Positions 35,624-55,800 of a DNA stretch of 55,871 bases are shown piece by piece. The DNA comes from Pyrinomonadaceae bacterium. Lineage in GTDB: Bacteria > Acidobacteriota > Blastocatellia > Pyrinomonadales > Pyrinomonadaceae. A program made the position numbers and the translations under genes. Position 1 is the stretch's first letter; each line of letters starts with the position of its first letter. The notes below the pieces were generated by a model that saw nothing but the letters and a program-made list of their open reading frames with translations, ran no database searches and was not told the DNA's origin. The stretch covers positions 1-55,871 of the forward strand of contig JACDEG010000001.1 in the NCBI GenBank assembly GCA_013816505.1, written 5' to 3'.

Positions 35624-35701
35624 TGGGGCGATAGGAGGGTCTTGAACCCTCGACCTCCGGTGCCACAGACCGGCGCTCTAACCAACTGAGCTACTATCGC
35701 C
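35624..35701 (-). tRNA. tRNA-His (anticodon GTG) with encoded G-1 and CCA
   Basis: The hand-folded reverse complement reads G-GCGATAG TA GCTC AGTTGGTTA GAGC G CCGGT CTGTGGC ACCGG AGGTC GAGGG TTCAAGA CCCTC CTATCGC C CCA. The extra 5' G opposite C73 is diagnostic for tRNA-His. Confidence 0.9.
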
Positions 35702-35861: not shown

Positions 35862-35937
35862 TGGTGCCCCCGGCTGGACTCGAACCAGCGGCCCTCTGCT
35901 TAGAAGGCAGATGCTCTATCCGCTGAGCTACGGGGGC
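35862..35937 (-). tRNA. tRNA-Arg (anticodon TCT), CCA encoded
   Basis: The hand fold reads GCCCCCG TA GCTC AGCGGATA GAGC A TCTGC CTTCTAA GCAGA GGGCC GCTGG TTCGAGT CCAGC CGGGGGC A CCA. Confidence 0.9.
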
Positions 35938-39355: not shown

Positions 39356-39429
<74 letters not shown>

Positions 39430-40216: not shown

Positions 40217-41671
40217 GTGTTTACAATCAAATCGCGCGAGGCGTGTTTGTCATGCTTCTCGCGTCCCTGCCGAGAAAGGTACGCCGAGTTGAACATCAAC
40301 ACAAATTTCAGCGAACAAGTAACACTGAACGAATCACCCAACGACCGTCAAGCTTTGAGCACGGCAACGGTCGAGGTGGGACAAGATGAGCAGATCGAGA
40401 CGACTGTATGCGAGTTGGGGTTATGGTTGCGCGGAGTCGAAAGTTTCTTCGACGCAAGCAATTTGTTGTTCTCACCAAACGACCGAGCGCGAATAGTTAC
40501 CCGCGACTTTACTGATGAAATGCTTGTTGCGCATTCGGCTCTCCAGCGTTGCCTGCAACTCATTTCGGCTTTGAGTCGTGCAGGGACGCCGGGCCTTCGT
40601 CAGAGCCAGGACCACGCCTTGATAAACGGAGGTGAGTCGGCGCGCCTGACTGATGCGCTGGCGAGCGAAGCCGCGCACGTTCAGCCGGCGTCCTTAGCCG
40701 ATCCACTGACGGATGCGGGTGTCGTGTGCCGGACGTTAGTCCGAACGCAGGCCGTTAGTTTTGAGGCTTGGTCGAGCGTCGGCCGACTGCTGGTACGCGA
40801 GTTGAAGCGTTCGGAACATGCAAAACAGATTGTGCGGGCGGCGCGGCGCATCTCTTCATCGAATGTGCGACCGGAACTGTTGACACTGACCGAGCGCGTT
40901 CAGCCCGAATCTCTCGGCGCGGACTTGCGCGAAGTGTTCGTCAAACTAAATGACCTGCTCGATCAACTGCGATTCATCGAAGCATCTTTGAAACTCGACC
41001 GGCCACTTAAACAGATGTTGATCGTGTTTACCTTAATACATCAAGAGACGCGGTCTTTGCTGATGATGATTGAGGCGCGTGCGCTCCGCTCAGAGGATAT
41101 TGAACCGAGCATTTTCGAAATACTGGACAGTACCGCGTACGCCATCCGGATGGAACTGCGCAAGGCGCTTGAGTACGAACTGGCGGACCTCAGTGGCTCG
41201 CGCCAAATGCCCTTGATCTATGCCAAAGTCGAGAACGCCCACGGCATACTGCGCGATTGTTTCCAGCAGTCCGTTGTTGCCCTGGCGCAGGTTTTTGACG
41301 ACACCCTTGACGGAAAGCTGCTGTTCCAAAACTTTCAAACGAAGCTTGATCAATCACTCGCCCTGCGCCGCGATTTATGGACTCAGTTAAAATGCGTCGA
41401 GCGCGCCGAAAGCAGGTGCGACCCCCAAGCGGTGGCGGCGCTTAAAGAGTCTCTCTCTGCTTTCCGTGAAGGAGGATTGCGCCACCTGATGTATAAAGAT
41501 TGGGAGTCTTACGAGCTTTTCTTTGAAGAGATCGCTGTGGTGCGCAAGCCAGCCGAATTGTTACCCGTGCTGCACCGGTTTGCGGCGTACCTCGAAACGC
41601 TGCTCGGCCAGGTCAACATGCGCGCCGTACTCTCTGAGCATGCTTTCGACTACCCGAAGATAATAGTTTAG
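40217..41671 (+). CDS. Hypothetical protein, 484 aa, predicted all-helical, no recognised domain
   Basis: It is a long ORF with coding-like composition. It has no TM segment or signal peptide. The GTG start is uncertain. Confidence 0.5.
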   Translation: MFTIKSREACLSCFSRPCRERYAELNINTNFSEQVTLNESPNDRQALSTATVEVGQDEQIETTVCELGLWLRGVESFFDASNLLFSPNDRARIVTRDFTDEMLVAHSALQRCLQLISALSRAGTPGLRQSQDHALINGGESARLTDALASEAAHVQPASLADPLTDAGVVCRTLVRTQAVSFEAWSSVGRLLVRELKRSEHAKQIVRAARRISSSNVRPELLTLTERVQPESLGADLREVFVKLNDLLDQLRFIEASLKLDRPLKQMLIVFTLIHQETRSLLMMIEARALRSEDIEPSIFEILDSTAYAIRMELRKALEYELADLSGSRQMPLIYAKVENAHGILRDCFQQSVVALAQVFDDTLDGKLLFQNFQTKLDQSLALRRDLWTQLKCVERAESRCDPQAVAALKESLSAFREGGLRHLMYKDWESYELFFEEIAVVRKPAELLPVLHRFAAYLETLLGQVNMRAVLSEHAFDYPKIIV

Positions 41672-43431
41672 CGCGACGTGTCTCGGTCGTCGGTGCGTTG
41701 CGGTGCAAAGCGCCCGACCGCGTCGCCGAGTTGTCCGAAGGCTGAAAAGGTCTGCCGCATAAAGCCGTCCTCTTCTAACTCCGTCAACGTTACCGCGAAA
41801 CTCTCCCGCTCAAGTCTCTCCCGAAACTCGTTGTGATTCGTGGCTGCGCCATCCCGCCGCGACGCGGCGGCGAGGTATGAAATGAAAGAGTAAATTGACT
41901 CATCTTCGATGGTAAACGTCAGGATGCCGGCGGGCGACCCGGCGGGTATCAACCTTACGGCCCGCTTAAAACCCTCGACAGTGTCGAGCGTCTGGTTATT
42001 GGCCGACGCTTCGAGACAGTGGCGCACGCTTTCTTCACTGCCCATGATGAGGTGTTCCGCGACGTAGCCAGCGGCGCCGCGCTCCGGTGTGTTGGAAACA
42101 AACATCTCCGCTTCACCCACACGAGTCCGGCGCAGAGAGTTGCCGAGCCTCTTACGCACTTGCTCGCGCAGTGCTTGCTGGTCCTTCACGGCGACAATCA
42201 AAACCGTACCGCCCCGTTCCTGGCCGAGCCGAGCCGTCGTGACGGGCGCCTTCGCCGCGCGAAGAAAACTGCGTGGGGATTCGATGCCGTAGGGTTTCAA
42301 AGCCTCGTCGAGCAGGACGCTCACGAAAGGGGCGCTGAGTGCGTCAAGCTGTGAGGCGATGGCCGCATTAAAGCCGCGCCATGCGGCCTCAGGTTCTTGA
42401 TAGCGGTATTGCGTTACTTGCTGTGAGTCGGCAGGCAAAAGTTTTGCGGCGGGCATCGGCGCGGCGGCGTCCGACGTAACAAGCGCTTCGCGCAGGCGTG
42501 GCGCGAGGCCGTTGCGCAACGTAATGATATACCGATCCTCCATCCGCCCATTGGTCACACGCGCGCTCCAGCCGGCGGCGCCTAAAATTTTGTTTGAGAG
42601 TTGCGGCAACAGGCTCGCCGCGCCGCTTTGAATCTGCTGGCTGGAAGAGAGCTGGCCGACGTATGGCAGCACCGCGACCTCAAGGAGTTTGGCGGCATTC
42701 CCTTCGGAGACGAAACCGAAAGCCAGAGCGTCTCCGGCAGAAAGGCGCGCGCGCGCGTCAGCGAGTTGAGGATTGCCGATCAGCGTCGGCCGCTCGCCAT
42801 GTCGAGCGGCGAGGCATGATTCCACAACCGCTTCATCATTCCCGATGACGGCGACGCTCTCTGAGACGGCGGCGACAATCTTCCGCCGCGGTTCGCCCGG
42901 AGCACTCCACGTCACGAAGCTTATGCCATCCACGTCTTTACGCTCGATTCGTGGTGCACGGTAGGCGCGACGCGCGAAGTCGCCGACAAGTCTTTCGACT
43001 GCCGCGCGGACGCGCGCCTCGCCGGTGTGAGTCTCAGCGACGAGGGCGGCGCGTGGCACAATTCTGAGGGTCGTGGCGTCGCCTTCATTGGCTTCAAACC
43101 CAATCACGGTCACGGCGACCTGAGAACGCGATAGGACGACAGCCTCCGCCGGCCCGATTCCGGTCCACCAGACAAGCTTGCTCAGCCACCCCGCCCGCTC
43201 CAGGTTGTTTTCATCGGCGGCCAAAGGCGCGAGGGAGCGCCAAGCATCCGTCGAACGAAAGCCTTCGACGATGTCAGGTAAACTGTTCGCTTCGATGAAC
43301 ACGATTGAATCGGCTGGAACATAACCCGACATGTCGACCTTCTGCGGGCGATTCCACCACAGCCATCCGCCACTAATGACAATGAGCGTCGTCGTGACCA
43401 GCAGCAACTTCTTTAGGATGCCCATACACAC
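41668..43431 (-). CDS. Hypothetical N-terminally membrane-anchored protein (DUF3352-like?)
   Basis: The TM helix is LLLVTTTLIVISGGWLWW, followed by YVPADSIVFIEANSLPDIVEGF, which resembles the start of DUF3352 proteins (tentative). Its stop overlaps the stop of 40217..41671. Confidence 0.5.
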   Translation of the reverse strand: MCMGILKKLLLVTTTLIVISGGWLWWNRPQKVDMSGYVPADSIVFIEANSLPDIVEGFRSTDAWRSLAPLAADENNLERAGWLSKLVWWTGIGPAEAVVLSRSQVAVTVIGFEANEGDATTLRIVPRAALVAETHTGEARVRAAVERLVGDFARRAYRAPRIERKDVDGISFVTWSAPGEPRRKIVAAVSESVAVIGNDEAVVESCLAARHGERPTLIGNPQLADARARLSAGDALAFGFVSEGNAAKLLEVAVLPYVGQLSSSQQIQSGAASLLPQLSNKILGAAGWSARVTNGRMEDRYIITLRNGLAPRLREALVTSDAAAPMPAAKLLPADSQQVTQYRYQEPEAAWRGFNAAIASQLDALSAPFVSVLLDEALKPYGIESPRSFLRAAKAPVTTARLGQERGGTVLIVAVKDQQALREQVRKRLGNSLRRTRVGEAEMFVSNTPERGAAGYVAEHLIMGSEESVRHCLEASANNQTLDTVEGFKRAVRLIPAGSPAGILTFTIEDESIYSFISYLAAASRRDGAATNHNEFRERLERESFAVTLTELEEDGFMRQTFSAFGQLGDAVGRFAPQRTDDRDTSR

Positions 43432-43657
43432 GCATCCTATAGTCCGTGGTGCTGCACAGGCAAGGAAGCCACGCTTAGATGTTTGGGCGCGTGAGTGATC
43501 CTGTCACCCACAGCGCAAGGTCGGCCCGAAGAGTTTCTCGCAACCCCTCAATTAATCCGTAAAGAACGCCGTTGAGACTCCGGAAACTGTTTCATAATGC
43601 ATTGCTCAACAGGCGTAAATGCAGAAATACCGTCGTTTAAACAATCAAAAATATTAT

Positions 43658-43687
43658 TTGACACGAATTGCGATGGGCTGTTATAGT
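43658..43687 (+). promoter_or_regulatory. Sigma70-like promoter candidate (TTGACA-18-TATAGT) for the pil leader
   Basis: ttgaca (43658-43663) and tatagt (43682-43687) sit in an AT-rich stretch. The near-palindrome tactaac-cggtt-gttagta follows at 43703-43721. Confidence 0.5.
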
Positions 43688-43826
43688 TGCCGCGTCGATC
43701 AGTACTAACCGGTTGTTAGTATTTACGAGCAGGGATGCATACAAGAGGGCCACGACCGAGATTTTCGAGCAGCCGGCAGAACCTGATGAATCGAAGTCTC
43801 GTCATCGCATCTATTGAAACTCAACG

Positions 43827-43920
43827 ATAAAGGCACACCTCGTGCGAGCGGGGGTCGCAAAGCCTAAGGGGGTCGCACCGAACGAAGCTCGGTTTCGACT
43901 CAGCCAGGTTGCCGAAGGAG
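43827..43920 (+). promoter_or_regulatory. Candidate c-di-GMP-I (GEMM-I) riboswitch aptamer
   Basis: AUAAAGGCACACC-UCGU-GCGA-GCGG-GGGUCGCAAAGCC-[P2: GGGUCG CA CCGA ACGAAGC UCGG UUU CGACUC]-AGCCAGGUUGCCGAAGG. This is block-wise collinear with the remembered Vc2 aptamer: GGGCAAACC-stem-GNRA-stem-GGGACGCAAAGCC-P2-AGCGGGGUUACCGAUGG. Confidence 0.6.
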
Positions 43921-44252
43921 AGACGGTTGCCGCGTGACCACGAGTGCTAATTCGTACGCAGCGCGCTCCTTCCACCTACTTCTTCCAATCATCCATCAAC
44001 CTAATTTCAAGCGGCGCGTTAGATTGAAAGTCTTGCCACACGACCCTCTGCTGTGAGCCAGGGGCGTGTCAGCAATCCCCCGATGAGTAAGCACGCACCG
44101 ACCTCCCCCAAGCCATATGAAAACCCTAGAACCGAACGAATTAAAGCCTACCCACGTGCGCCCGACGCGTTTCCGAGTCCGCCGCGTCCGTGACCGCTTG
44201 CGTCGAGTAAAATCGCCGGAGAATCGGACCACTCGCGAGGAACAATTAACCT

Positions 44253-45311
44253 ATGTTTGGAAAAAGTAGAAAAAAGAATTTGGTCGGTCTGGACATCGGA
44301 TCATGCTCGGTGAAAGCCGTCGAGCTGCAAGGCGAATTGGGCAACCTCTCCCTCGCCCACCTCGGTCTGGAGTTGCTTCAGCCGGACACGGTGGTTGACG
44401 GACAGATCATGGAATTCAACGACGTGTCACACGTCATCGCGTCGATTTTCAGCACAAATCAGATCAAAACCGAGCGCGTCGCGGCCGGCGTGAGCGGCGG
44501 TTCGGTGATCGTCAAAAACATCACCGTGCCGCAGATGAGCCGGAAAGAGTTGGAAGATTCAATCGACTGGCATGCCGAAGAGCACATCCCCTTTGATATT
44601 TCCGATGTCAGTTTGGATTACCAGGTTATCGGCTCGGACGGGGACTCGCTGCACGTTTTGATGGCCGCCTGCAAGCGCGACTTCGTCGCCAATCTAAAGC
44701 AGGCGGTGCAACTCGCTGGGAAGCAGCCTGTAATCATCGATGTCGACGCCTTCGCGCTGCAAAACTGCTACGAGATGAATTACCAACCAACTGACGATCA
44801 ACTGGTCGCGCTGCTCAACATCGGTGCCTCCAAAATGAATATCAATATCCTGCAGGGCACGAAGAGCATCTTCACGCGCGACGTCTCTTCCGGGGGGAAC
44901 AAGTACACTGCGTTGCTGCAGAAGGAACTCGGCTTGACGTACGAGCAGGCGGAGGCGGTGAAGCGGGGCGCGCCGGCGCCGGCTGAAGTGGGAGAGCATG
45001 ACTTCGAGTCATCCTTCGAGACTGTCTCTGACATGCTGGCGCTGGAGATTCAAAAGACTTTGGATTTTTACCGCGCGACCGCGGCAGAGGGCAACACTTC
45101 GGTGCAAAAAATCCTGATCTCGGGTGGCGGCTCGAAACTCAAAGTGCTGCCCCAACGCCTGGCAAATCGACTCGAGATTCCGGTCGAGGCCTTCGACCCG
45201 TTCCGCCGCATTAAAATCGACCCCAAACGTTTCGACGCCGCCTTCGTGCAGGACATGATGCCGTTGATGGCCGTCGCGGTGGGCCTTGCGCTGAGAGGAG
45301 TTGAGGCTTAA
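44253..45311 (+). CDS. pilM: Type IV pilus assembly ATPase-fold protein PilM
   Basis: LVGLDIGSCSVKAVEL is the actin-like fold N-terminus. ILISGGGSKL and AVAVGLALR at the C-terminus are also present. It is the first gene of a pilMNOPQ order. Confidence 0.9.
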   Translation: MFGKSRKKNLVGLDIGSCSVKAVELQGELGNLSLAHLGLELLQPDTVVDGQIMEFNDVSHVIASIFSTNQIKTERVAAGVSGGSVIVKNITVPQMSRKELEDSIDWHAEEHIPFDISDVSLDYQVIGSDGDSLHVLMAACKRDFVANLKQAVQLAGKQPVIIDVDAFALQNCYEMNYQPTDDQLVALLNIGASKMNINILQGTKSIFTRDVSSGGNKYTALLQKELGLTYEQAEAVKRGAPAPAEVGEHDFESSFETVSDMLALEIQKTLDFYRATAAEGNTSVQKILISGGGSKLKVLPQRLANRLEIPVEAFDPFRRIKIDPKRFDAAFVQDMMPLMAVAVGLALRGVEA

Positions 45312-46052
45312 ATGATTAAGATTAATTTGCTGGACTCAGTCACCGACAGAACTTCCCACGGGGTGGTCGAGGCAAGGGTCACTAACCCGCAGAATCGCAT
45401 GTTGATGCTGGCCGTCGCGGTCGGCGCACTGTTAGCGGTCGGGATCGCCTTCGACTGGTTCAGCGCGAACTCCGCGCATGCCGCGGCGTTGGCCGAGCTG
45501 CAGCGGCAGGAGCAGATCAAGGCGCAGATGGAGGCCGTCAATAAAGAGCAGGCCGAACTCGAAAAGAAGATCAAAGACATCCAGGCGCGCATCGACGCGA
45601 TCAAGAAACTGCGCGCCTCGCAGCAAGGTCCGGTCGCCGTGCTGTCGGCGGTTAATGAGCGGTTGCCGGCCATCGCCAATTTCCGCCTCGATACCATCGA
45701 GCAGAAGAGCGGCGAACTTATCATCGACGGTAACTCGCCGAACGAGGCCGCCGTGACGCAGTTCGGTCGCAGCCTTGAATTTTCTTCGGGGCTTTTTTCG
45801 AACGTCAATATTGAGCTTGTGCGCAAACCGATGGATGTTAACCCGGCGGATTATCCCGTCGGGGCTGATGCCACCGCGCCGAAGCCGGAGACAGTGACGT
45901 TTAAGATCAGGTGCAAGTACACCGAGCCGGGCGCGAACCTGCCCGCCAGCGCCCCGGTAGCGGCGGCGACTGTTGGTCCGGCGACCGGCGCCCAGCCGCG
46001 TGCGGGTGCAAGCGCCGCGACCACGCCCGCAAGCCAGGTCGCCCGAAACTAA
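45312..46052 (+). CDS. pilN: PilN (fimbrial assembly) with Ala/Pro-rich C-terminal extension
   Basis: MIKINLL is the N-terminus. A single TM helix, a coiled coil (ELQRQEQIKAQMEAVNKEQAELEKKIKDIQARIDAIKKL) and the position after pilM support the call. Confidence 0.8.
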   Translation: MIKINLLDSVTDRTSHGVVEARVTNPQNRMLMLAVAVGALLAVGIAFDWFSANSAHAAALAELQRQEQIKAQMEAVNKEQAELEKKIKDIQARIDAIKKLRASQQGPVAVLSAVNERLPAIANFRLDTIEQKSGELIIDGNSPNEAAVTQFGRSLEFSSGLFSNVNIELVRKPMDVNPADYPVGADATAPKPETVTFKIRCKYTEPGANLPASAPVAAATVGPATGAQPRAGASAATTPASQVARN

Positions 46053-46065
46053 TCACTAAGGGCGG

Positions 46066-46734
46066 GTGACGACCGACGCCTCAAGGAATCTTTACGACAT
46101 GCTGAAACTCAACACGTTGCAGGAAAAGCCGTGGCACATCCAACTGGCTGTCTTCGGCGCCGTCGCGCTGGTGCTCTACGCCGGCTTCTGGTATCTGGTG
46201 ACGAAGGACACACGCGCGCAGACGCGCGAGACCGATGAGAAAGTCGCCGAACTGGTACAGGCCAACGCCCGCGCTCAGATCGCTTCGCAGCGCCTTAGCG
46301 AATTTAGGGTCGCGCACGCCCGCGCCCAGCTGGACTACGAAGAGGTCAAGGTGTTGCTGCCGGAGCAACGCGAGTTGACGATTGTTCTGCAGGGGCTGCA
46401 GGACCGTGCGCGCGGTCAACTCTCTTTGCGGCGCTTCTCACCCAAGGAGGACATCCAGCAGGACTACTACTCCGGGAAGCCAATCGAGGTCGAGGTCAGC
46501 GGCTCTTATAATAATCTCGGCGTGTTCTTCGCTCAGATGGCGGCCTACCAGCGGATCGTCTCGATCTCCGACTTCAAGATCAGACAGTCTCCTGACCAAC
46601 GCACGGGAAAATCCATCGACAGTCAGTTCATCCTGACGGCTTACTACGCTTCACCGGAAAAATTGGTGAGTGCTGCCAAACCGGCGACGACAACTCCGGC
46701 CACCGCCGCGACTCCGGCGGGCGCCAAGCCGTAA
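46066..46734 (+). CDS. pilO: PilO
   Basis: It has a TM helix (IQLAVFGAVALVLYAGFWYL), a coiled coil, and a C-terminal ferredoxin-like segment (IEVEVSGSYNNLGVFFAQMAAYQRIVSISDFKI). An alternative start is ATG 46099. Confidence 0.8.
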   Translation: MTTDASRNLYDMLKLNTLQEKPWHIQLAVFGAVALVLYAGFWYLVTKDTRAQTRETDEKVAELVQANARAQIASQRLSEFRVAHARAQLDYEEVKVLLPEQRELTIVLQGLQDRARGQLSLRRFSPKEDIQQDYYSGKPIEVEVSGSYNNLGVFFAQMAAYQRIVSISDFKIRQSPDQRTGKSIDSQFILTAYYASPEKLVSAAKPATTTPATAATPAGAKP

Positions 46735-46887
46735 CCCCGGCGGGCGGTGGTGCCGCCCCGTGTGGCGTCTGGTGCGACCTGTTTTTGAAAGTCTCTTGAT
46801 AACAACCTCCGGCCCGAAATCCACTGGCCACTGATCAATCCGTCGATGGCACCAGGGGTGCACGACGAGGCGCGGGAAAGGACAACG

Positions 46888-47526
46888 ATGAGATACGAAA
46901 AGTTTGCGCGTTCCATGATGCTTGGTTGCGTTGCTCTGTGTGCCGTCGGCTTCGGCGGTGCCGGCACGGCGGCGCGGGCGCAAGAGGCGAGCACTTCCTA
47001 CCAAGGCACTCAGCGTGACCCGTTCATGAAGTACCGGCCTCCGGTCAAACGCAAGGCCGTCAAGAAATCCCTGGTGCCGGTGCAACTTCCGGCCCCGAGC
47101 ATCCAGGAGCGCATCGCACAGTTCAAAGCTCAAAAGGCGGCGGCGATGAGCGCGCAGCGGGTCGCACCGAAGCCAACGACCGCATTGCTGTTGGAAGAAC
47201 TGCAAGTGATCGGTATCTTTCGCACCCCGCGCGGCCCCGCAGCGATGGTCGAAGCGACGCCGATCAAACTCTCCTACGTAGTCTATCCGGGCGAATCTTT
47301 CTTCAACGGACTGCTCGTCGCGATTGAAGAGAACCGCTTAGTGTTTCGCCGCGAGACGAAGTGGAGCAACGGACGCCTCGAAATCTCAGTTGAGAATAAG
47401 CCTCTGCGCCTGCCCGGCGCGGTCGAAAACTCTCTGACATCAAACAACTCCGCCGCGGCGAAGGCCGCTTCGTCCCAGACGATCAAGGGTCGGGAAGATA
47501 CTGTGCCCGTCACAGACAAACAGTGA
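46888..47526 (+). CDS. pilP: PilP-like pilus assembly protein
   Basis: A signal or lipoprotein-like N-terminus is present. The C-terminal beta-domain is LQVIGIFRTPRGPAAMVEATPIKLSYVVYPGESFFNGLLVAIEENRLVF. Confidence 0.65.
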   Translation: MRYEKFARSMMLGCVALCAVGFGGAGTAARAQEASTSYQGTQRDPFMKYRPPVKRKAVKKSLVPVQLPAPSIQERIAQFKAQKAAAMSAQRVAPKPTTALLLEELQVIGIFRTPRGPAAMVEATPIKLSYVVYPGESFFNGLLVAIEENRLVFRRETKWSNGRLEISVENKPLRLPGAVENSLTSNNSAAAKAASSQTIKGREDTVPVTDKQ

Positions 47527-47784
47527 TTCTGCTTTTCACGGCGGGACGGGTGAGCCGGAAGTCCGGACCTTAACCGCCGCCCCCTCACGACACGCCTGTT
47601 CAGTCGCGCCGAGTCACAAACTCGCTCGGCACGAGTCATCGCAAACATTAAGAGTCGTTTCGTTAATCAGGCCGGGCTGACCCGTGTTGTGCGGCGCGCG
47701 CACTCAATGAGCACTCGATTCCGAGCGGCTCTGACGAGCGTGGGCGCGTGGCGGGTGAGGCCGGCGAATCTGCAAAGGAAAAAT

Positions 47785-49659
47785 ATGACCTACCACCAAC
47801 ATTCACTCTCAGCGGTTACCAGCAGAGGCTCGCTCGTTCTCTTGCTCGTGTGTTCGCTGATTACGTTTGCTGACGCGGCCCGCGCGAACACGCCGTCCGC
47901 GATTGGAACCCAGACCCCGACGCAGCGCGTTCAACCGTCGCCGTCTCCGCGCAATCAGCAGACGCCCGCCACCCGCCCGACGCCTCCCAACCCAGGCGTC
48001 ACCACCACCACTTCCACCGCTACGCCGCCCGCCGCCACGCAGTCGAGCCAGGGTCAGCAGTACGGCCAGCCCGGATTCATCGGCGAGCCGACCAACCTGA
48101 ACGTCGTTAATGCCGACATCCGCGACATCCTCAATTACATCACCGAACAGTACGGCGTGAACTTCATCATCGATTCGTCGGTCAAGGCCGTCCCGGTAAC
48201 GGTCAACGTCACGGAAGTTCCATGGAACATCGCGCTCGACTCGATCCTGAGGGCTAACCGCCTGGGAGTCGAAGTCACGGGAAGCATTCTGCGCGTCGCG
48301 ACGATAGATGTGATTGTGAGCGAAGCGGCGTCGCAGCAAATCATCAGGAACTCGCAGTTGGACGCCTCGCCGCTAGTCACGGAGTTCATCCGCCTCAACT
48401 ATGCGCGCGCCTCCGGCACACTCGAACAGACCGCCGGATCAAACGGCGGCTTCTCTGGCGGCGTCGTCAACTCGCCCGTGCTGATCGCCGGTCGGCTGAC
48501 CGAAGTGGCATCCGTGAGCCGCGCCACAAGCGGCCGCGGTGCTGACGAAGGTATCCTGCCGATCATCCAGCGCCGCCTGTCGCGACGCGGCGGCATCGAG
48601 GTCGACGGTCGCAGCAACACCCTGATTATCACCGACGTGCGCGAGAACATCGTGGCGATCAAGCAACTCGTGTCGCTGCTCGATCAGCCGGAGCCGCAGG
48701 TCGAGATCGAGACGCGCATCGTCATCGCCAACCGCAACTTCAGCCGCGACCTCGGCGTGCAGCTTTCCGCCGCGGTATTCGGCACCACCGCCGCCGGCTC
48801 GTTCGCCACATTGCCGAACTCAAGTTCCAACACCACCGGGTTACAGCCTGGCGGCGTGCCGGTCGGCTTGTCCGGTATTTCGCAGCCGACATCATCGCTC
48901 GGCGCGAACCTTCCGAGCACCGTGATCGGATTGACCACCGGCATCTTCGGCACCGCCCAGATCAGCGCGGCAATCACCGCCGCCGAAAGTAAAGGCCAGG
49001 CCAAGATCGTCGCCACCCCCCGTGTCACCGCGCTCAACAACCGTACGGCGCAGATCGAAGCCGGCCAGCAGATTCCGGTGGTCACGCCGCAGGTCGGGGG
49101 AGCAGGCGGCGCCGTCATCTTCACGACGACTTACGTCTCCGTCCCACTGCGCCTCTCGGTCACGCCGCAGATTACCGACGCCGGCACCGTCATCCTGCGC
49201 GTCACCGCTGAGAACAACAGCATCAACACCGCGATTGCCGTGGCCGGCACGCCCGGCATCGACACTCAGCGGATGCAGACCGAAGTGCTTGTGCCGGATG
49301 GCGGAACGACCGTGGTCGGCGGTGTGCTGGCCGACAACGAAACTGAACTGCGCAACCGCACGCCTGGATTGGGCAGCCTGCCGGTGATTGGCAACTTGTT
49401 CAAGCGCCGTGCGACCTCGCGTCAGACCAACGAGATTCTGTTCTTCATCACGCCGCGCATCTACCGCCCGGACTACAACGGCAACCAGACAACCGGCGCG
49501 GTCAGCACCAGCAATCGTACGTACTCAATCGCGCAGCCGGTACCACTCGGCAACCCGCAGAGCAATTCGGGTCCGCAATCACAATCGCAGCAGAACAATC
49601 AGCAGTCCCCCGACCGTTCGGCACCGTCATTACCGAATGGCTCTGACGCGCGCCCCTAA
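47785..49659 (+). CDS. pilQ: Type IV pilus secretin PilQ
   Basis: A signal peptide and a Pro/Thr/Gln-rich linker precede the N0-type domain (VVNADIRDILNYITEQYGVNFIIDSSV). The secretin domain is ATPRVTALNNRTAQIEAGQQIPV...LGSLPVIGNLFKRRATSRQTNEILFFITPRI. Confidence 0.9.
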   Translation: MTYHQHSLSAVTSRGSLVLLLVCSLITFADAARANTPSAIGTQTPTQRVQPSPSPRNQQTPATRPTPPNPGVTTTTSTATPPAATQSSQGQQYGQPGFIGEPTNLNVVNADIRDILNYITEQYGVNFIIDSSVKAVPVTVNVTEVPWNIALDSILRANRLGVEVTGSILRVATIDVIVSEAASQQIIRNSQLDASPLVTEFIRLNYARASGTLEQTAGSNGGFSGGVVNSPVLIAGRLTEVASVSRATSGRGADEGILPIIQRRLSRRGGIEVDGRSNTLIITDVRENIVAIKQLVSLLDQPEPQVEIETRIVIANRNFSRDLGVQLSAAVFGTTAAGSFATLPNSSSNTTGLQPGGVPVGLSGISQPTSSLGANLPSTVIGLTTGIFGTAQISAAITAAESKGQAKIVATPRVTALNNRTAQIEAGQQIPVVTPQVGGAGGAVIFTTTYVSVPLRLSVTPQITDAGTVILRVTAENNSINTAIAVAGTPGIDTQRMQTEVLVPDGGTTVVGGVLADNETELRNRTPGLGSLPVIGNLFKRRATSRQTNEILFFITPRIYRPDYNGNQTTGAVSTSNRTYSIAQPVPLGNPQSNSGPQSQSQQNNQQSPDRSAPSLPNGSDARP

Positions 49660-50081: not shown

Positions 50082-50348
50082 ATGCGCTCTCCGATTGAGA
50101 AAAGAGAAGGGCGGTTCTCACAACTGTCACTCAAAGTGACAATCGAGCAGCGGCGACGCCGGCGAGTTTCAACCTCGCCAAGCGTGCCGCTGTTGTCGCG
50201 TAAAGAGTTAGCCGGAGTTGACGAACTCTTTGGTGATGCGGAACAGGCATTGCACAACTCAACGCTTGCGGAAGCCGGTTCCGACCCGGTGATCACCCCA
50301 GCGGATGTCTTGGTCCGCCGAGAGAAGACGAACAATGAGAAAACCTGA
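50082..50348 (+). CDS. Possible small ORF (88 aa) between roadblock gene and minor pilin genes
   Basis: The open frame runs from ATG 50082 and overlaps the next gene start by 14 nt. I recognise no family. The composition is basic then acidic. Confidence 0.3.
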   Translation: MRSPIEKREGRFSQLSLKVTIEQRRRRRVSTSPSVPLLSRKELAGVDELFGDAEQALHNSTLAEAGSDPVITPADVLVRREKTNNEKT

Positions 50349-51036
50349 AATCAGAAATCGAACGGCACAGGCGGGTTTTACGCTTGTTGAATTGCTCATC
50401 GTCATAGCCGTGATCGGCATCCTCAGTGTGATCGCGGTGCCGCAATTGATGTCGGCGCGCCGGGCATTCCGCGCCGCCGGCATGTCGCGCGAAATCGCAT
50501 CGCAGTTGCGTTACGCACGACAGTTGGCGATGTCGGAACGCAGGGCCATCACATTCCGGTATGACGACACGCTGAAACAAATCTCGATCATCCGGCACAC
50601 GCTGGTGTACGCGGGGCCTGACGGAATCTTAGGCGGGGCGGGAGCGACGGATGACACACGGGTGGGAGTTTCCGTGTTGACTGATCCTAATTACCCGTTG
50701 ACGACCGGCTTCGTGCAAGTCAAAACAATCGACCTTGCTTCAAGCGCCACCCCGGCGACGGACATCGTCTACGGTAAACCCACGGATGCTTCGACGGCGG
50801 CCCTCAGCGACGGCACCAACCTGCCCGCCGCGATCCCGACCATGGTCAACATTACGTTCCAACCGACCGGCGCGGTCATCAACGGCGCCGGCGCGACCGT
50901 CGACAACGCGCTCTTTTTCTACAACACGAAAAGCCCGAAGAACACCGCGACGGCAATCTCCGTGCTCGGCTCCGCCGGGCGGGTCGCCATTTGGAGATAC
51001 AACGGCAGTGTCGATCCGGGCATATACGTCGAATAG
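50335..51036 (+). CDS. Type IV minor pilin, FimT/GspH-like
   Basis: The prepilin N-methylation motif is AQAGFTLVELLIVIAVIGILSVIAVPQL. Confidence 0.75.
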   Translation: MRKPEIRNRTAQAGFTLVELLIVIAVIGILSVIAVPQLMSARRAFRAAGMSREIASQLRYARQLAMSERRAITFRYDDTLKQISIIRHTLVYAGPDGILGGAGATDDTRVGVSVLTDPNYPLTTGFVQVKTIDLASSATPATDIVYGKPTDASTAALSDGTNLPAAIPTMVNITFQPTGAVINGAGATVDNALFFYNTKSPKNTATAISVLGSAGRVAIWRYNGSVDPGIYVE

Positions 51037-51046
51037 CGAGTCACAC

Positions 51047-51589
51047 ATGAAAAACTCAAACACTTCTCATCAATCCGGTTTCACGCTGATCGAAGCGGTG
51101 GTATCGATACTGATTCTGACAATCGGTTTGCTCGCGATGGCGAGTGCGATTTCCTACGCCGTGATGGCGCGGAGCCGATCTCGCAACTCGACGGAAGCGA
51201 AACTGCTCATCGTCTCGACGCTCGAGCATCTCGAAAGCCTGCGCAACACGAAGCACCTCACCTTCGGGCAGATTGCGAACGTCGGCGGCGTCAATCCCGA
51301 CGGCAAGGTGGTGGACTTCTTGGGCTTTTCGGCTGCGTTCTTAACGGTTTCGAACGACCCGGGGCCTGATGGGATTTACGGCACTACCGACGATCTCGCG
51401 ACCGCGCTCAGGCCCAGAATCGAACGGAAGATTTTGATCGAGCCGCTGCCCGCCAACGCGGCCATCGCGAACGTGAGTTTAAAGAAGATCACGGTCACAA
51501 TCCGCTACCCGGCCCCGAACGGCGGCACGCAGGAACTGGCCGGCATCGGATACCTGAACAACGACTCGCGCAGCAACTTTATTAAATAG
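51047..51589 (+). CDS. Type IV minor pilin, PilV-like
   Basis: The prepilin-type N-terminus is HQSGFTLIEAVVSILILTIGLLAMASA. ATG 51047 lies within the longer ORF 50735..51589. Confidence 0.7.
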   Translation: MKNSNTSHQSGFTLIEAVVSILILTIGLLAMASAISYAVMARSRSRNSTEAKLLIVSTLEHLESLRNTKHLTFGQIANVGGVNPDGKVVDFLGFSAAFLTVSNDPGPDGIYGTTDDLATALRPRIERKILIEPLPANAAIANVSLKKITVTIRYPAPNGGTQELAGIGYLNNDSRSNFIK

Positions 51590-51627
51590 CTGAGATTTGC
51601 GCCCACTTCACGCCCGGAGTAACACAC

Positions 51628-52758
51628 ATGCAATCGCCGAAAGAAACAAAGAACCAGCGCGGATTTTCACTGCTTGAGTTGTTGGTCACGATGGGAGTGA
51701 TGCTCGTCATCATGGCGGCGGTCTTTTCGCTGATGGGCAGCGCGCTGAAGACCAGTACCGTCGCCTACGAGCTGACGAACGCGCAGCAGAGTGTGCGCAC
51801 CGCGCATGAGTTTTTCAACCGCGACCTGACGGTGGCGGGCGACGGCCTGCTCGGCATCAGCGACAACGGGATTCAGGTCCGCCTGCCATTCGCGCAGCGG
51901 TTGATGCAGAACCCGTATCAACCAACAATTGCGGAGGGAGGGTTCGATAGCACCAGCTTCGCGGTGCTATCGATTGTCAACTCCGATAACGAAGTGGCCG
52001 CCGGGGTGGTTGAACCGGCGAATAGCGGCGCCACCGTGCCGGCTCGCACTGTACGCAGCGCACCTAATGCTACCGACCGAATGACGATGGTGACCATTGA
52101 CCCGGACGGCGCCTTCACCCCGATCTCGCCGATCCCGCCGGCCAGCGTATCTGCCGATGGCACCACCGTGACCGTCACCATTGCGCAATCGGGCCAATGC
52201 ACAGCGGGTGACATTCTCTTCATCTCGAACGGCGACCTCGCCACGTTTGGGACTGTCACCGGCGGATGTGGCGCGACCGGCACGATTGTCTTCGCAAACG
52301 ACGCATACGAACTGAACACGCTGAGCACCGGCACCACCCCGGGAAGGGCGCTCGCTAAACTCGCCGCGCTCGGATCGCCGCTCATCATCAGCCGGATGCT
52401 GATCCACCACTATTTCGTTGATACGGATGGCCTGCTCCGGCGGCGTACATACGGCGTCGGCGGCGGCGTCGGGTTCACCGACAGTGTCATCGCCGAGCGC
52501 GTCACGAGATTCCAGGTTCGCTACCGCTTGTTCGGGTTTGACTCGGCCTTCAACCTGCTTTACGCGGGTCTCCAAAACGACCTCTCGTATGTGGCTGTGG
52601 CGCCGGCGATTCCGAATCTGCCAAGTGCTGTCCGCGAAGTGGAAACGGCGGTGACAATCGAAACCGCGCACGCCGTCGTCAACAATCAGCGCAGTAGTGT
52701 CAACGCGACTGCGACGACGAGCGTCCGCAATCTCGAATTCCGTAACAACGCTCAATAG
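51628..52758 (+). CDS. Type IV minor pilin, PilW-like
   Basis: The prepilin-type N-terminus is QRGFSLLELLVTMGVMLVIMAAVFSL. Size and position match pilW in fimT-pilVWX clusters. Confidence 0.7.
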   Translation: MQSPKETKNQRGFSLLELLVTMGVMLVIMAAVFSLMGSALKTSTVAYELTNAQQSVRTAHEFFNRDLTVAGDGLLGISDNGIQVRLPFAQRLMQNPYQPTIAEGGFDSTSFAVLSIVNSDNEVAAGVVEPANSGATVPARTVRSAPNATDRMTMVTIDPDGAFTPISPIPPASVSADGTTVTVTIAQSGQCTAGDILFISNGDLATFGTVTGGCGATGTIVFANDAYELNTLSTGTTPGRALAKLAALGSPLIISRMLIHHYFVDTDGLLRRRTYGVGGGVGFTDSVIAERVTRFQVRYRLFGFDSAFNLLYAGLQNDLSYVAVAPAIPNLPSAVREVETAVTIETAHAVVNNQRSSVNATATTSVRNLEFRNNAQ

Positions 52759-52823
52759 AGCGTCAACGACCCCCAATCGGTCTCAGGGTTTTAATAATCA
52801 ATTTATTGAAGGAGAAGTTTGTT

Positions 52824-55800
52824 ATGTTTTCCGAAAAGTTCAATCAAACTGCCGAGCGATCCTCATTGTCGGCGGAGCGCACCGGAGAGCGCGGCGCGGC
52901 GCTGGTGACGGCACTGGTGATTATGGCGTTGATGATGACTATCTCAGCCTCGGTGCTGACGGTGGTCACGACCGAAGCCAACATCACCGGGAGTGATTTA
53001 AAGCGCACGCAGGCGTTCTACGCCACGCAAGCGAGCATTGAGCAGATGACAAACGGCTTCAGTTCGCTGTTCTCGTTGACGGCGCGCCCGACGACCGCGG
53101 CCCTTCAAGAGATTGCCGACACTTTCCCAGCCGAGTTGATCAGCGAAGGCTTCACCTTTCAGCAGACATTAGTCAAAGATGAAGCGCGGCTCACAAAGAT
53201 GCGGTCTGACATGGGACTGGCTATCGATGCGACCCCGACGACGAATATCACGACCGGACCGTTCGCCGGACTCTTCGGCAGCATCACCCCTTACAAGCTG
53301 GCGTCGACCGCGACCAACTCACAGGGCTATGCGGAAGTTACGCTCGAGCGCGAAATTAACAACTTCCTGATCCCGCTCTTTCAATTCGGTATGTTCACCG
53401 ACGGCGACATGGAGATTCACCCCGGCCCGGCGTTCTACTTCAATGGCCGCGTTCATGCCAACGGGAATTTCTACATCAGCGGACCGGAAACTGGGACCAA
53501 CTTTGTTAACTTTCTGGGCAAGGTGACGATTGGCCGCGAGGCCGTGTATAACGTGATGCGGAACGGACAACCCAGAACAGGAAATGTCAAAGTGTGGGTC
53601 GGAGCGACCGGCGTCACTCTTAATCAGGGCAGCTTCACCGACGGGCCGCATAAGTCGGGCTCGACGGCGACTTCGCCGAATTACTTCCCGGATTCGCCGA
53701 CCGGCACGAAGACGACGGCCATCAATTGGGAAACGCAGACGGTGCAAGCTCCGAGCGGGGCCACGCCGACCAATAAGTTCAACCGGCAACTGCTGACCCG
53801 CACGACCGGCGCGGTGCCGCTGCTGCTGCCGTTCCAACTCGATGGCGCCCCGACGCGAGAGATCATCAAGCGCGCGATAACAACTGACACGCAATCGCTC
53901 AGCGAGTCGCGCTACCATAACAAGGCGCAGATTCGCATCCTGATTGATGATGCGCCATCGCTCGCCACCGGCTGGCCGTCACTCACCGCCGGTGTCAATC
54001 TGGCTGCCTTCGTCCCCACCCGGCTCGGCGCGAACGTCTTGCGCCGTCACGACGACAGCGGCAACGTGGTTGGGGTCACAGTCAAACAAGGGACTGGCTC
54101 AGTGAACGCGAACGCGGTGCGCGGGGGGTTATTAGGAGATGCTACAGCTCCGGCGATTCCGACGGGAGCGCCGCTGACGGGAAGAATTCTTATCCAACTC
54201 GTGCAAGAGAATGGGACGGCGGTCGATGTCACGCAGAGGATACTGAGCATGGGTATCACCGAGGGCGAGCCGAACGGCATCGTCTACTTGCAGCGGCCGA
54301 TGTGGGCGGCGTTCATGCAGGGGAGCCGTGACCGCGACACGCTCGGCGGTCCATATAACCTGGCAAGTTTGACCGACACGACGAATTACGTTGCCGACGG
54401 TGAAGTTTCCACCACCACGCCCCCGACGATACACTCGACCAAAGGTTACCTCAACACCGGGATTGACGACGACACGAGCGGGCTGGAGCGCCGCGGCGAT
54501 GCACCGCCAGCGATCACTGATCCCTCGAATTGGTGGAACAGCATCGTCCCGATCAACGTCTACAATGTGCGCGAGGGGTTGATTCACAGCCGCCTGAACA
54601 GTAATCAAATCTACGAGCGTGGAATCACGAGCGTGGTCGAGATCAATATGAAGAATCTGGCCCGCTGGGTCGGCGGTGTCTATGACAGCACGCTGCTCGC
54701 CGGCTCCGCGCCCGACGCCCGCGCCTCTAACATCAAGAGGGGCGACGGCTACATCCTCTACGTCTCGGATCGCCGGGGCGACAGCGTGCCCGTCGGCGGA
54801 ACCACGAACGGCATCGTCGACAACGAAGACATCTACATCTTCCCGTCGACCTCGACCACCGGGAGCAGCGCCGATGCATCAACCGGCACACTCGATCCGG
54901 GCGAGGATGTCAACGGTGACGGTCTGTTATCAAGCAACATCCTCGAGTTGCCATACCCGTTCCCGTATATAACCACCGATGTAAACGTCATCACTGATTT
55001 TACCCCCACTTTCACCCCTACCGTCGCTGCTCCCTGGACATGGGGGGTCGCTACCGCTGAGAGGCTCAACCGGGCGAAGAAGGTTCTGAGTCACAACGTC
55101 AGGTACTTCCGCCGCGCCGTTCGCCTTTTTAACGGGGAGAGGATTCAGGCCGGGGCCGCGACCGCGACCAGCAACCTCTCGATCAACCGGGGTATCAGCG
55201 TCACCACCGAAAACATGGTCTACATCTGGGGCAACTTCAACACGACCGGCATCACCTGCCAGCCGGCCAATGGATCGACGCTCAATCAGTTAACCGCGAC
55301 TAACCCGACGACCACGCTGATGCCCTGCCGCTATAAAGGCGACCAGGTTCCGTCCTCGATTGTCAGCGATGCGTTCTTCCCACTCTCGAAGACGTGGGCC
55401 GACAGCTTGAGCGCGATGTACCCGCAAGGCGGGCGCCCGGCTGACGATATGTTGCCGGCGGATCCGGGCGCGCCACTGCCTAATTACGAAACGGCGGTGC
55501 GCGCCGGGATCATCGCCGGCAACAACAAGTCGGCGATCAAGGTCGGCTACAGCATGACCGGAAACACCAGCCTCGACGCAGGCAACGGTACCGAGTCACG
55601 TCTCAACGGCGGGATGCACAACTATCCGCGCTTCCTGGAGGGTTGGAGCCAGCGATGGAATCTGGTTGGTGCGCTGATCCCGCTCTACAACTCGACACAG
55701 GCGGTCGGGCCATACAGGGCGGTCGGAGAAATCTACGGCGCCCCGATTCGCAATTGGTCGTTTGACGACACGTTCAAAGACCCGAACCGTCTGCCACCGG

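Follow-up and report, generated by a model that had tools for sequence, protein, structure and literature searches.

GEMM riboswitches have been linked to pilus genes since 2007, when pilM, pilO, and pilQ were listed as GEMM-associated (Weinberg, 2007; PMC1950547), and the riboswitch of Geobacter pilM is well characterised (PMC9262584; PMC6456294). Aptamers of a receptor-less type with a GYRA loop have also been described, absence of the 11-nt receptor being the rule for such loops (PMC1950547). The distinction between c-di-GMP and cGAMP follows a rule of G versus A at position 20 (PMC6140456), and long aptamer-gene distances occur in the c-di-GMP-I class, in which Bc1 has a long expression platform (PMC11218506).

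Here we describe a locus of a Pyrinomonadaceae bacterium, contained in a 55.9-kb stretch of DNA that was analysed whole and is referred to as the window. A preliminary description placed a candidate c-di-GMP-I (GEMM-I) riboswitch before its pilMNOPQ operon and knew of no such arrangement in this kind of organism. The candidate is confirmed by a score above the gathering threshold of its Rfam family, by occurrence at the same site in relatives, and by covariation. In general the arrangement is not new, given the 2007 listing and the Geobacter studies; for Acidobacteria (Acidobacteriota), no published case was found in the literature searched. The element adds one more ordinary example to a riboswitch class that is well known. 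With it, this sensor of a second messenger reaches soil Acidobacteria of the family Pyrinomonadaceae, in which it is conserved before type IV pilus assembly genes. It offers a direct and testable connection of c-di-GMP to pilus formation in a phylum whose regulatory genetics has hardly been studied. The genome of Pyrinomonas methylaliphatogenes K22 carries the element (locus L079), so the link can be tested in this named strain, which we take to be cultured.

Identity and conservation of the aptamer

Among the Rfam covariance models run against the whole 55.9-kb window, RF01051 (c-di-GMP-I) was the only riboswitch model matched, at 43822-43916 on the + strand with 45.5 bits (E 9.6e-6; gathering score 35 bits); this search had been suggested in the preliminary description. 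The match is full-length, covering model positions 1-87 of 87, and our own clade-specific model, R1, scores 103.5 bits at 43816-43925. The sequence blocks first recognised from the letters alone lie at 43827-43864 (AUAAAGGCACACC-UCGU-GCGA-GCGG-GGGUCGCAAAGCC) and, for the 3′ block AGCCAGGUUGCCGAAGG, at 43902-43918. The parts of the aptamer are as follows:

43820-43922, + strand: c-di-GMP-I aptamer including the extended P1 (RF01051, model R1, covariation, column composition)
43820-43922, + strand: P1 pairs C43825-G43914 and G43826-C43913, with an extension of CUC (43820-22) pairing with GAG (43920-22)
43833-43858, + strand: P2, with its GCGA loop at 43844-47
43861-43910, + strand: P3
43832, 43859, and 43912, + strand: predicted ligand-contact positions G43832 (G20), A43859 (A47), and C43912 (C92), in Vc2 numbering
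43867-43906, + strand: A.A mismatch A43867/A43906 near the P3 base (alignment pair 53-119, which is CG in 75 rows and other in 1, the window row)

The Vc2 numbering was placed on the Rfam consensus by inference from the "GGC" consensus of RF03167 and from two published accounts (PMC6140456; PMC9262584). The aptamer, which has no 11-nt receptor, is of the receptor-less, GYRA-capped type, and the P2 tetraloop reads GYGA (GCGA or GUGA) in 76/76 aligned sequences. A bulged A near the P3 base is invariant in the same 76 aptamers, and the GNRA loop may dock to P3.

The element recurs in relatives with little change of place. In 19 of 20 related Pyrinomonadaceae pilM loci, the Rfam gathering score is passed at the same position, with 45-57 bits and the aptamer lying 210-380 nt upstream of pilM. 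Of 81 sources searched with model R1, 76 gave a single match, always at the same place and in the same orientation, and the model found the aptamer in 37 more metagenome loci. Across the 76 sequences, 98% of cells are paired, vs 19-42% with the partners slid, and double changes occur at 13 pairs; none of 500 shuffles reached the observed values on any of five measures, for an alignment that was fitted to the model and thereby favours the structure. Compensatory changes fall in the P1 extension, in P2, and in the distal part of P3; a comparison of orthologous pilM leaders had been proposed in the preliminary description. An independent MAFFT/RNAalifold run likewise recovered covariation in P2 and P3. 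Recurrence at the same place together with covariation makes the element more than a chance match. At the predicted contact positions, the G20 column holds G in 73/76 and C in 3/76 with no A, while the columns for A47 and C92 are A and C in 76/76. The window segment 43820-43922 is thus very probably a class I cyclic-di-GMP riboswitch aptamer, and its G20/A47/C92 contact residues predict c-di-GMP rather than 3′3′-cGAMP as the ligand. The best explanation as a whole, taking identity and mechanism together, is one that we hold with good confidence; its mechanistic part is graded separately below.

Promoter, operon, and a small arginine-rich reading frame

The leader and the genes that follow it contain these features:

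43637-43652, + strand: block TTAAAC-N4-AAAAAT just 5′ of the -35 hexamer, nearly invariant in aligned leaders
43658-43687, + strand: TTGACA-18-TATAGT, a sigma-70-type promoter whose -10 hexamer is preceded by TG (11/12 matches in a consensus scan)
44117-44269, + strand: small ORF, 50 aa in this allele, beginning MKTLEPNELKPTHVRPTRFRVRRVRDRLRRV, conserved in related loci
44253-45311, + strand: pilM (Pfam PilM_2, 1e-67)
45312-46052, + strand: pilN (Pfam PilN, 3.8e-5)
46066-46734, + strand: pilO (Pfam PilO, 5e-22)
46846-47526, + strand: PilP-sized ORF, assigned by position and size and without a Pfam match
47689-49659, + strand: pilQ secretin (Pfam Secretin, 1.3e-44)

The pilus operon context therefore stands as first described, with PilM, PilN, PilO, a PilP-sized ORF, and the PilQ secretin downstream of the aptamer. 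So does the promoter: the region 43300-44400 has no sigma-70-like site other than TTGACA-18-TATAGT, both hexamers of which are kept in essentially all related loci. Transcription would start at about 43694-43696, and the aptamer would then begin about 125 nt into the transcript. The upstream block TTAAAC-N4-AAAAAT, a candidate UP element or binding site of a regulator, is also present in a sister clade without the riboswitch. For the leaders of that clade, which carry GCCACC...GGUGGC, RNAalifold gave no consensus on a poor alignment, and Rfam returned nothing relevant.

Between the long ORFs lies a gap of 821 nt (43432-44252), and 336 nt separate the aptamer end from the pilM ATG (44253). The preliminary description gave 820 bp and 333 nt. 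The gap is not, however, wholly non-coding, and pilM does not provide the first regulated start, for a conserved small ORF lies inside, about 200 nt from the aptamer. Nearly all related loci have this ORF, which typically stops some 7 nt short of pilM; its length ranges over 35-57 aa and it ends just before or just inside pilM. Same-species contigs show an indel polymorphism at 44208. Without T44208, the product would read ...RRENRRRIGPLARNN, with a stop at 44247-44249, 3 nt before pilM. The motif R-x-R-R-x-R-A-R-L-R-R is conserved, entropy by codon position is 0.58 / 0.60 / 1.45, and the invariant Arg and Leu are each written with six codons. No Pfam or NCBIfam family matches the product, and a database search gave only 9 matches, called "hypothetical protein" where the source names them. 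This strongly conserved, unannotated Arg-rich gene, possibly coupled to pilM, may turn out more valuable than the riboswitch. No Shine-Dalgarno (SD) sequence is recognisable for the small ORF. The SD of pilM is a conserved AGGAAC, and its ribosome-binding region in the window (GAGGAA, 44237-42) lies within the translated small ORF.

Platform comparison depends on which relatives are available; these are either near-identical same-species contigs or genomes whose PilM is at most 78% identical, and the leaders of the latter align with the window only at the aptamer and the small ORF.

Possible expression platform and direction of switching

Three features follow from the 3′ edge of the aptamer:

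43914-43922, + strand: purine tract GAAGGAGAG, which forms the 3′ side of the extended P1 and is SD-like, a candidate switching strand
43925-43965, + strand: intervening hairpin (MFE folds), not conserved in sequence outside locus L002
43964-44012, + strand: C-rich, G-poor tract, by composition a candidate Rho-utilisation site or anti-SD region

The purine tract appears in relatives as GAAGGGGAG or GAAGGUGAG, and throughout the clade a pyrimidine tract comes after it; in the 76 loci, pyrimidines make up 72% and G 14% of the interval 60-75 nt beyond the aptamer. In the window, two CU tracts, CUCCUUCC (43966-73) and CUUCUUCC (43979-86), are both complementary to the purine tract. The pairing of GAAGGAG (43914-43920) with CUCCUUC (43966-43972) that had been pointed out earlier is thus real, CUCCUUC being one of two pairable tracts. 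On the + strand of the window, no stretch containing a single G or none is longer than the one in 43964-44012 (47 nt; the next longest is 36). The 5′ part of the intervening hairpin, GGUUGCCG at 43925-32, repeats the GGUUGCCG of the aptamer at 43907-14. An ORF starting with GTG at 43934 (40 aa), with GGAG right after the aptamer, was also seen and set aside; its spacing is 13 nt and the leader there is unconserved.

Whole-leader MFE folding (580 nt) gave long-range pairings that we do not trust, such folds being unreliable as support for a mechanism, and constrained folding was done on 207 nt. In the free 207-nt fold, 43914-22 pairs with 43979-85. Enforcing the aptamer with P1 costs 13.7 kcal/mol and raises the probability of being unpaired from 0.11 to 0.99 for 43979-86; the purine tract, paired with the CU tract in the free fold, is unpaired with a probability of 0.01 there vs 0.56 with P1 enforced. 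The duplex of purine and pyrimidine tracts shows no significant excess in energy over shuffled purine tracts (on average -15.8 vs -14.6 kcal/mol), in a control that is conservative since shuffling keeps the purine richness. As stated in the preliminary description, there is no U-tract terminator: a consensus scan found no terminator-like site on the + strand of 43300-44400.

These folds point, tentatively, to an OFF switch. When the ligand is absent, GAAGGAGAG (43914-22) would pair with the CU tracts at 43966-73 or 43979-86. When c-di-GMP is bound, P1 and its CUC/GAG extension would keep the purine tract, and the freed CU tracts would leave about 47 nt of C-rich, G-poor RNA unpaired, some 100-150 nt before the first start codon (44117). 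This unpaired RNA would promote premature termination of transcription, which in this species is proposed to be Rho-dependent because no U-tract terminator exists; from composition, Rho dependence is possible. At high c-di-GMP, the small ORF and the pilus assembly genes would accordingly be expressed less. We prefer this direction and mechanism with somewhat less than even confidence.

An ON switch is possible, if rather unlikely. Here the hairpin 43914-43985, formed without ligand, would act as a terminator, a pause, or a destabilising structure, and P1 stabilised by c-di-GMP would prevent it and allow expression of the small ORF and pilMNOPQ. The 5′ strand of this hairpin is the 3′ strand of P1, which makes the two mutually exclusive, and their competition can fit an ON design of the kind reported for Geobacter pilM (PMC9262584) equally well. 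In one large subclade, moreover, ACUCCYGCCUUCGGA, 62-73 nt downstream, complements GCCGAAGGGGAGA, including C92-G94. However, no U tract follows the hairpin either in the window or in that subclade. Another subclade has a strong hairpin and UUUU after the aptamer (found with our own script), and there the complementary CU tract comes after the U run and so cannot be the 3′ strand of a terminator, while the predicted antiterminator, pairing GGGUUGCC of the aptamer with the 5′ strand of the hairpin, implies OFF logic. The consensus scan did not call these hairpins, which have four U only, as terminators. A general antiterminator between the aptamer 3′ strand and the next 40 nt was rejected for the clade, with a mean z of +0.17 and significance in this one subclade only; for the window, the pairing is at -7.9 vs -9.8 kcal/mol for its own shuffles.

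Translational control is improbable. It would have the CU tracts CUCCUUCC, CUUCUUCC, and CCUCCCCC (44102-09) act as anti-SD sequences, with the purine tract, held in P1 or not, deciding whether they are free to mask the ribosome-binding region belonging to the small ORF or, at GAGGAA, to pilM. The SD-like purine tract, the resemblance of the CU tracts to the 16S anti-SD core, the occurrence in many relatives of another such tract, CCCCUCCUCA, some 100 nt past the aptamer, and the conserved SD of pilM would all suit such a scheme, but the spans involved are large (130-270 nt), the SD of pilM sits within a translated ORF, the small ORF has no recognisable SD to mask, and a covarying pairing was not found.

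A broader proposal, speculative and to us similarly improbable, makes the riboswitch the sensor of a clade-specific module, in which a purine/pyrimidine switching helix and Rho, in place of an intrinsic terminator, would control a conserved Arg-rich microprotein of about 45 aa translationally coupled to PilM. The microprotein might be an unrecognised type IV pilus assembly component or regulator, or might bind RNA and act on the leader from which it is made. In the sister clade, the same promoter would drive another structured leader, not described so far, where GEMM-I stands here.

It is very unlikely that the aptamer of this species is decaying, or altered in affinity or specificity, so that the c-di-GMP response of its relatives has been lost. 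The A.A mismatch could weaken ligand binding; it is unique, the C-G pair being kept in the 75 other aptamers of 76, and the Rfam score of 45.5 bits is in the lowest class of those compared (45-57 bits). Natural loss exists as well, locus L014 lacking the aptamer though its promoter and small ORF remain. Against decay, every ligand-contact and junction nucleotide is intact, the score is above gathering, the mismatch only widens a bulge already there, and five independent contigs of the species, from other samples, carry the aptamer unchanged.

Least likely of all is another cyclic dinucleotide (3′3′-cGAMP, as in GEMM-Ib and at Geobacter pilM) or a variant class such as c-di-GMP-I-GGC: a permissive Rfam search of 43400-44300, which omits lower-scoring overlapping matches of the same clan, did list RF03167 for the clan, and one relative (L056) passes the RF03167 gathering score, but the window reaches 43.7 bits against a gathering score of 59 and reads GCAAA where the variant needs G at 47 (GCGAA), and GEMM-Ib needs A at Vc2 position 20, which is G43832 here and A in 0/76 relatives. 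Apart from GEMM-I, no match to an RNA element in this permissive search, run across 43400-44300, rose above chance level.

Comparison with described riboswitches

The platforms differ by subclade, some having a hairpin and U run and others, such as the window, a purine/pyrimidine switch and C-rich tract. This variety, which may outweigh the riboswitch itself in worth, could serve as a natural series for platform evolution or for tests of Rho-dependent control by a c-di-GMP riboswitch. Rho-dependent riboswitches were reportedly described by Hollands et al. in 2012, for the Mg2+ element of mgtA in Salmonella and the FMN element of ribB in E. coli; we know of no description of Rho-dependent termination by a c-di-GMP-I riboswitch. 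The window resembles mgtA and ribB in its long leader without an intrinsic terminator and in a C-rich, G-poor tract whose access would be set by the state of the aptamer. Unlike in those two, Rho dependence in the window is a proposal only.

With V. cholerae Vc2, the element shares the three-helix junction, the AAA-type junction, the GNRA-capped P2, and the G20/A47/C92 contacts, whereas Vc2 has a GAAA loop with the 11-nt receptor and the window a receptor-less GYGA. As in the c-di-GMP-I class (RF01051), its place is the 5′ leader of a cluster of pilus genes. It differs in having no canonical terminator or SD-sequestering platform, in the small ORF that separates the aptamer from the main operon, and in its host, which belongs to Acidobacteriota. 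The closest counterpart in position is the GEMM-Ib riboswitch of Geobacter pilM, where a GEMM-I fold likewise stands directly before a pilM-led operon and the P1 3′ strand can likewise pair with a downstream strand (PMC9262584; PMC6456294). The Geobacter riboswitch has A at position 20, responds to cGAMP, and is an ON switch with an intrinsic terminator adjoining the aptamer; the window, in contrast, has G20, no U-tract terminator, about 200 nt to the first start codon, and a predicted polarity that is the opposite.

The pilM leader and its aptamer

The long open reading frames (ORFs) leave a gap of 821 nt (43432-44252), followed by PilM, PilN, PilO, a PilP-sized ORF and the PilQ secretin. The features in and around this gap are:

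40217-41671, + strand: 484-aa ORF, on the upstream side of the pilM leader
41668-43431, - strand: 587-aa ORF, divergent from the riboswitch promoter region and bordering the gap upstream
about 43575-43586, further upstream of the promoter: conserved TCCGGA palindrome (TTTCCAGAAA/TTTCTGGAAA-like in relatives)
43637-43652, immediately upstream of the -35 hexamer: TTAAAC-N4-AAAAAT block, conserved in essentially all loci
43658-43687, + strand: sigma-70-type promoter TTGACA-18-TATAGT with a preceding TG, the only such site in 43300-44400
44117-44269, + strand: small Arg-rich ORF, window allele (alternative end 44249), with its stop just inside pilM
downstream border of the gap, + strand: pilM (PF11104, 1e-67)
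50305-51036 and 51628-52758, downstream of pilQ: minor-pilin-like genes with prepilin N-methylation motifs
52806-55859, downstream of pilQ: 1017-aa PilX_N-domain protein

Neither the 484-aa nor the 587-aa ORF matched Pfam or NCBIfam, and the PilP-sized ORF had no Pfam match. The N-methylation-motif genes and the PilX_N protein (50305-55859) indicate that the pilus cluster reaches beyond pilMNOPQ.

The sequence blocks from which the preliminary description had proposed a c-di-GMP-I (GEMM-I) riboswitch were all found in place. The riboswitch is confirmed as an observation, and its interpretation is supported: RF01051 matches 43822-43916 (+ strand) over model positions 1-87 of 87, at 45.5 bits against a gathering threshold of 35 (E 9.6e-6 for the entire 55.9-kb window). 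Since the aptamer passes this curated threshold, standard annotation pipelines would be expected to label it. The only other Rfam matches to pass in the whole window are three tRNA genes on the - strand (35627-35700, 35865-35937, and 39356-39429; 69-74 bits against RF00005). When just the gap was searched permissively, with lower-scoring overlapping matches to same-clan families left out, the clade entry listed was the c-di-GMP-I-GGC variant (RF03167); this identity was rejected, as 43.7 bits is well under the gathering threshold of 59 and the junction reads GCAAA, not GCGAA.

The comparison set comprised 80 pilM loci from species-representative genomes, and PilM homologues of named source (72-78% identity) were labelled Pyrinomonadaceae or Acidobacteria. 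Rfam found the aptamer above gathering in 19 of 20 loci tested, including Pyrinomonas methylaliphatogenes K22, each time on the pilM strand and 210-380 nt ahead of the gene. A covariance model of our own, built from 20 of the related loci, gave exactly one match in 76 of 81 sources, the exceptions being three with the upstream DNA cut off and the loci L014 and L063, and it matched 37 further loci (metagenomes and same-species contigs). The aptamer occurs at every locus whose PilM shares some 64% identity or more with that of the window, and is absent, by our model and by Rfam, from a sister group with 59-62% identity. In the Pyrinomonadaceae genome L014, promoter, CCCUCCUCA tract and small ORF are retained without an aptamer (pilM at 2501, region ~310 nt upstream), which looks like a natural riboswitch deletion.

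Covariation in orthologous pilM leaders, proposed earlier as a check, was seen in P2, distal P3, and the P1 extension. In the 76-sequence alignment, which was fitted to the model and so favours the structure, standard pairs fill 98.0% of cells, vs. 19-42% after shifting the 3′ partners by 1-3 columns. Both sides change at 13 of the 27 pairs, and none of 500 shuffles equalled the observed values on any measure. Four of six P2 pairs covary (one occurs as AU, UG, CG, GC, GU, and UA), as does the three-pair P1 extension, CUC 43820-22 with GAG 43920-22. P2 and P3 covariation likewise appeared with an independent MAFFT alignment and RNAalifold. The P2 loop is GCGA (n = 66) or GUGA (n = 10) and no aptamer contains the 11-nt tetraloop receptor, in agreement with the published rule for GYRA-capped GEMM RNAs (PMC1950547).

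The equivalents of the Vc2 ligand contacts G20, A47, and C92 are G43832, A43859, and C43912, with Vc2 numbering mapped to the Rfam consensus by deduction from the RF03167 “GGC” consensus and the published ligand-pairing C just before the P1 3′ strand. Across the clade these positions are G in 73/76, A in 76/76, and C in 76/76. In cGAMP-sensing GEMM-Ib RNAs, A takes the place of G20 (PMC6140456); because it does not do so here, the ligand predicted from sequence is c-di-GMP. The three remaining aptamers carry C at this position (alignment column 18; e.g., locus L023 around 2101) and could be variants that recognize their ligand differently. Near the base of P3, the window alone (1/76) has an A43867.A43906 non-pair where the others have C-G. 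An assembly error is excluded, as five same-species contigs from other samples have the identical aptamer; the mismatch widens a bulge that is already there and may reduce affinity.

Promoter, upstream elements and a small ORF

The -35 and -10 hexamers of the promoter proposed earlier are conserved in essentially all loci while the sequence from the -10 to the aptamer varies; the conserved hexamers support this promoter and place the aptamer inside the transcript, with a transcription start site that we infer. The TTAAAC block and the TCCGGA palindrome are candidate regulator-binding or UP elements, common to clades with and without the riboswitch. In the sister clade (L124-L160; PilM 59-62% identical), the same TTAAAC..TTGACA promoter block, about 300-350 nt upstream of pilM, drives a leader of ~300 nt that has no Rfam match and no Arg-rich ORF. 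It contains conserved complementary blocks, CCYWUCGCCACC and, ~170 nt later, GGUGGCA (GCCGCC with GGCGGC in L156), and may be an undescribed structured leader replacing GEMM-I. Upstream of the pilM leader on one sister-clade contig (L134, 803-847, - strand) is a sub-threshold Acido-Lenti-1 match (RF01687; 33.9 bits, gathering 37).

The pilM leader had been called non-coding, which holds for long ORFs only: between aptamer and pilM, nearly all loci carry a small ORF of 35-57 codons whose stop lies ~7 nt before the pilM ATG. The conserved features of the leader alignment downstream of the aptamer, an ATGAA start and a G+C-rich block, both belong to it. Its peptides begin M-K/N and share the motif R-x-R-R-x-R-A-R-L-R-R. 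Mean entropy at codon positions 1, 2, and 3 is 0.58, 0.60, and 1.45 bits (13 core codons, 69 loci), and the invariant Arg and Leu residues each use six different codons, Arg sometimes being replaced by Lys. Together, codon-position entropy and synonymous codon use are those expected of a gene that is translated and held under purifying selection. The ORF is mostly unannotated: Pfam and NCBIfam gave no match, and only nine database entries matched, the source-named ones as “hypothetical protein.” In the window it follows the family frame through ...DRLRR and is out of frame beyond. Same-species contigs are polymorphic at 44208 by indel and substitution, which switches the C-terminal frame: the window and L163 have T, L165 has C, and L161, L162, and L164 have no base there. 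Without T44208 the ORF ends ...RRENRRRIGPLARNN, with its stop at 44247-49, 3 nt before pilM, which restores the family-typical ending ...ARNN. The small ORF puts the first regulated start codon ~200 nt from the aptamer, closer than the 333 nt previously counted to pilM.

Expression platform and direction of control

The window holds no canonical expression platform and, as noted previously for a U-tract terminator, no terminator-like site on the + strand of 43300-44400. Three platform features are visible: a purine tract, a variable hairpin, and a pyrimidine-rich tract. The purine tract is the 3′ strand of P1 with its extension (GAAGGAGAG in the window, GAAGGGGAG or GAAGGUGAG in relatives). 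In the 76 loci, G makes up 44% of the 15 nt that follow CCGAA, whereas in the bin at 60-75 nt downstream pyrimidines account for 72% and G for 14%. No other + strand segment of the window carrying no more than a single G is as long as the one in 43964-44012 (47 nt, runner-up 36). The direct repeat GGUUGCCG (43907-43914 and 43925-43932), whose first copy takes in J3/1 and the 3′ strands of P3 and P1, could provide a decoy or partner strand; near-repeats of the aptamer 3′ strand also occur downstream in L002, L004, and L018.

When 43810-44016 is folded without constraint, the purine tract (P unpaired 0.01) pairs with CUUCUUC at 43979-85. The GAAGGAG/CUCCUUC pairing suggested earlier is the alternative register. 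Enforcing the aptamer and P1 costs 13.7 kcal/mol and raises P unpaired of the CUUCUUC tract from 0.11 to 0.99. Purine/pyrimidine duplexes are no better than composition-matched shuffles. We tentatively favour, at somewhat under even odds, an OFF switch acting by premature termination: c-di-GMP would lock the purine tract into P1, exposing a C-rich, G-poor tract within a long untranslated stretch, and this would lead to termination that in the window species would be Rho-dependent.

Platforms clearly differ between subclades of this one riboswitch-operon pair. The largest subclade has a conserved ACUCCYGCCUUCGGA, 62-73 nt downstream, complementary to GCCGAAGGGGAGA. In another (L007-L010, L012, L017-L021, L025, and L028), a hairpin (-11 to -26 kcal/mol, most -20 to -26) with UUUU(U)ACCC behind it stands 47-56 nt beyond the aptamer, and next comes CCGCCACCUUC, which can pair with the purine tract by complementarity. 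The U runs of these hairpins are limited to four or five residues, and the consensus scan does not call them terminators. Several minimum-free-energy folds there form an antiterminator from aptamer GGGUUGCC and the 5′ strand of the hairpin, so ligand binding would favour the hairpin, an OFF logic for this subclade; the pairing is not general across loci and is weak in the window. The main rival to our OFF model is an ON switch resembling that of Geobacter pilM, with the long hairpin blocked once P1 forms; we regard it as somewhat less likely. Less likely still is control of translation by tracts that resemble anti-Shine-Dalgarno sequences.

Comparison with known systems

Vc2 reportedly acts as an OFF switch, and the platform of Bc1 is long (PMC11218506). 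No paper was found on c-di-GMP riboswitches in Acidobacteria, in line with the preliminary description. The pilM riboswitch of Geobacter metallireducens, dissected by biophysical methods, is an ON switch for cGAMP (PMC9262584), and the pilMNOP operon of G. sulfurreducens is responsive to the level of cGAMP (PMC6456294). What is new in the window is confined to the host phylum, a pilM operon whose riboswitch has the signature for c-di-GMP instead of cGAMP, the small ORF lying in between, and a platform that is not canonical.
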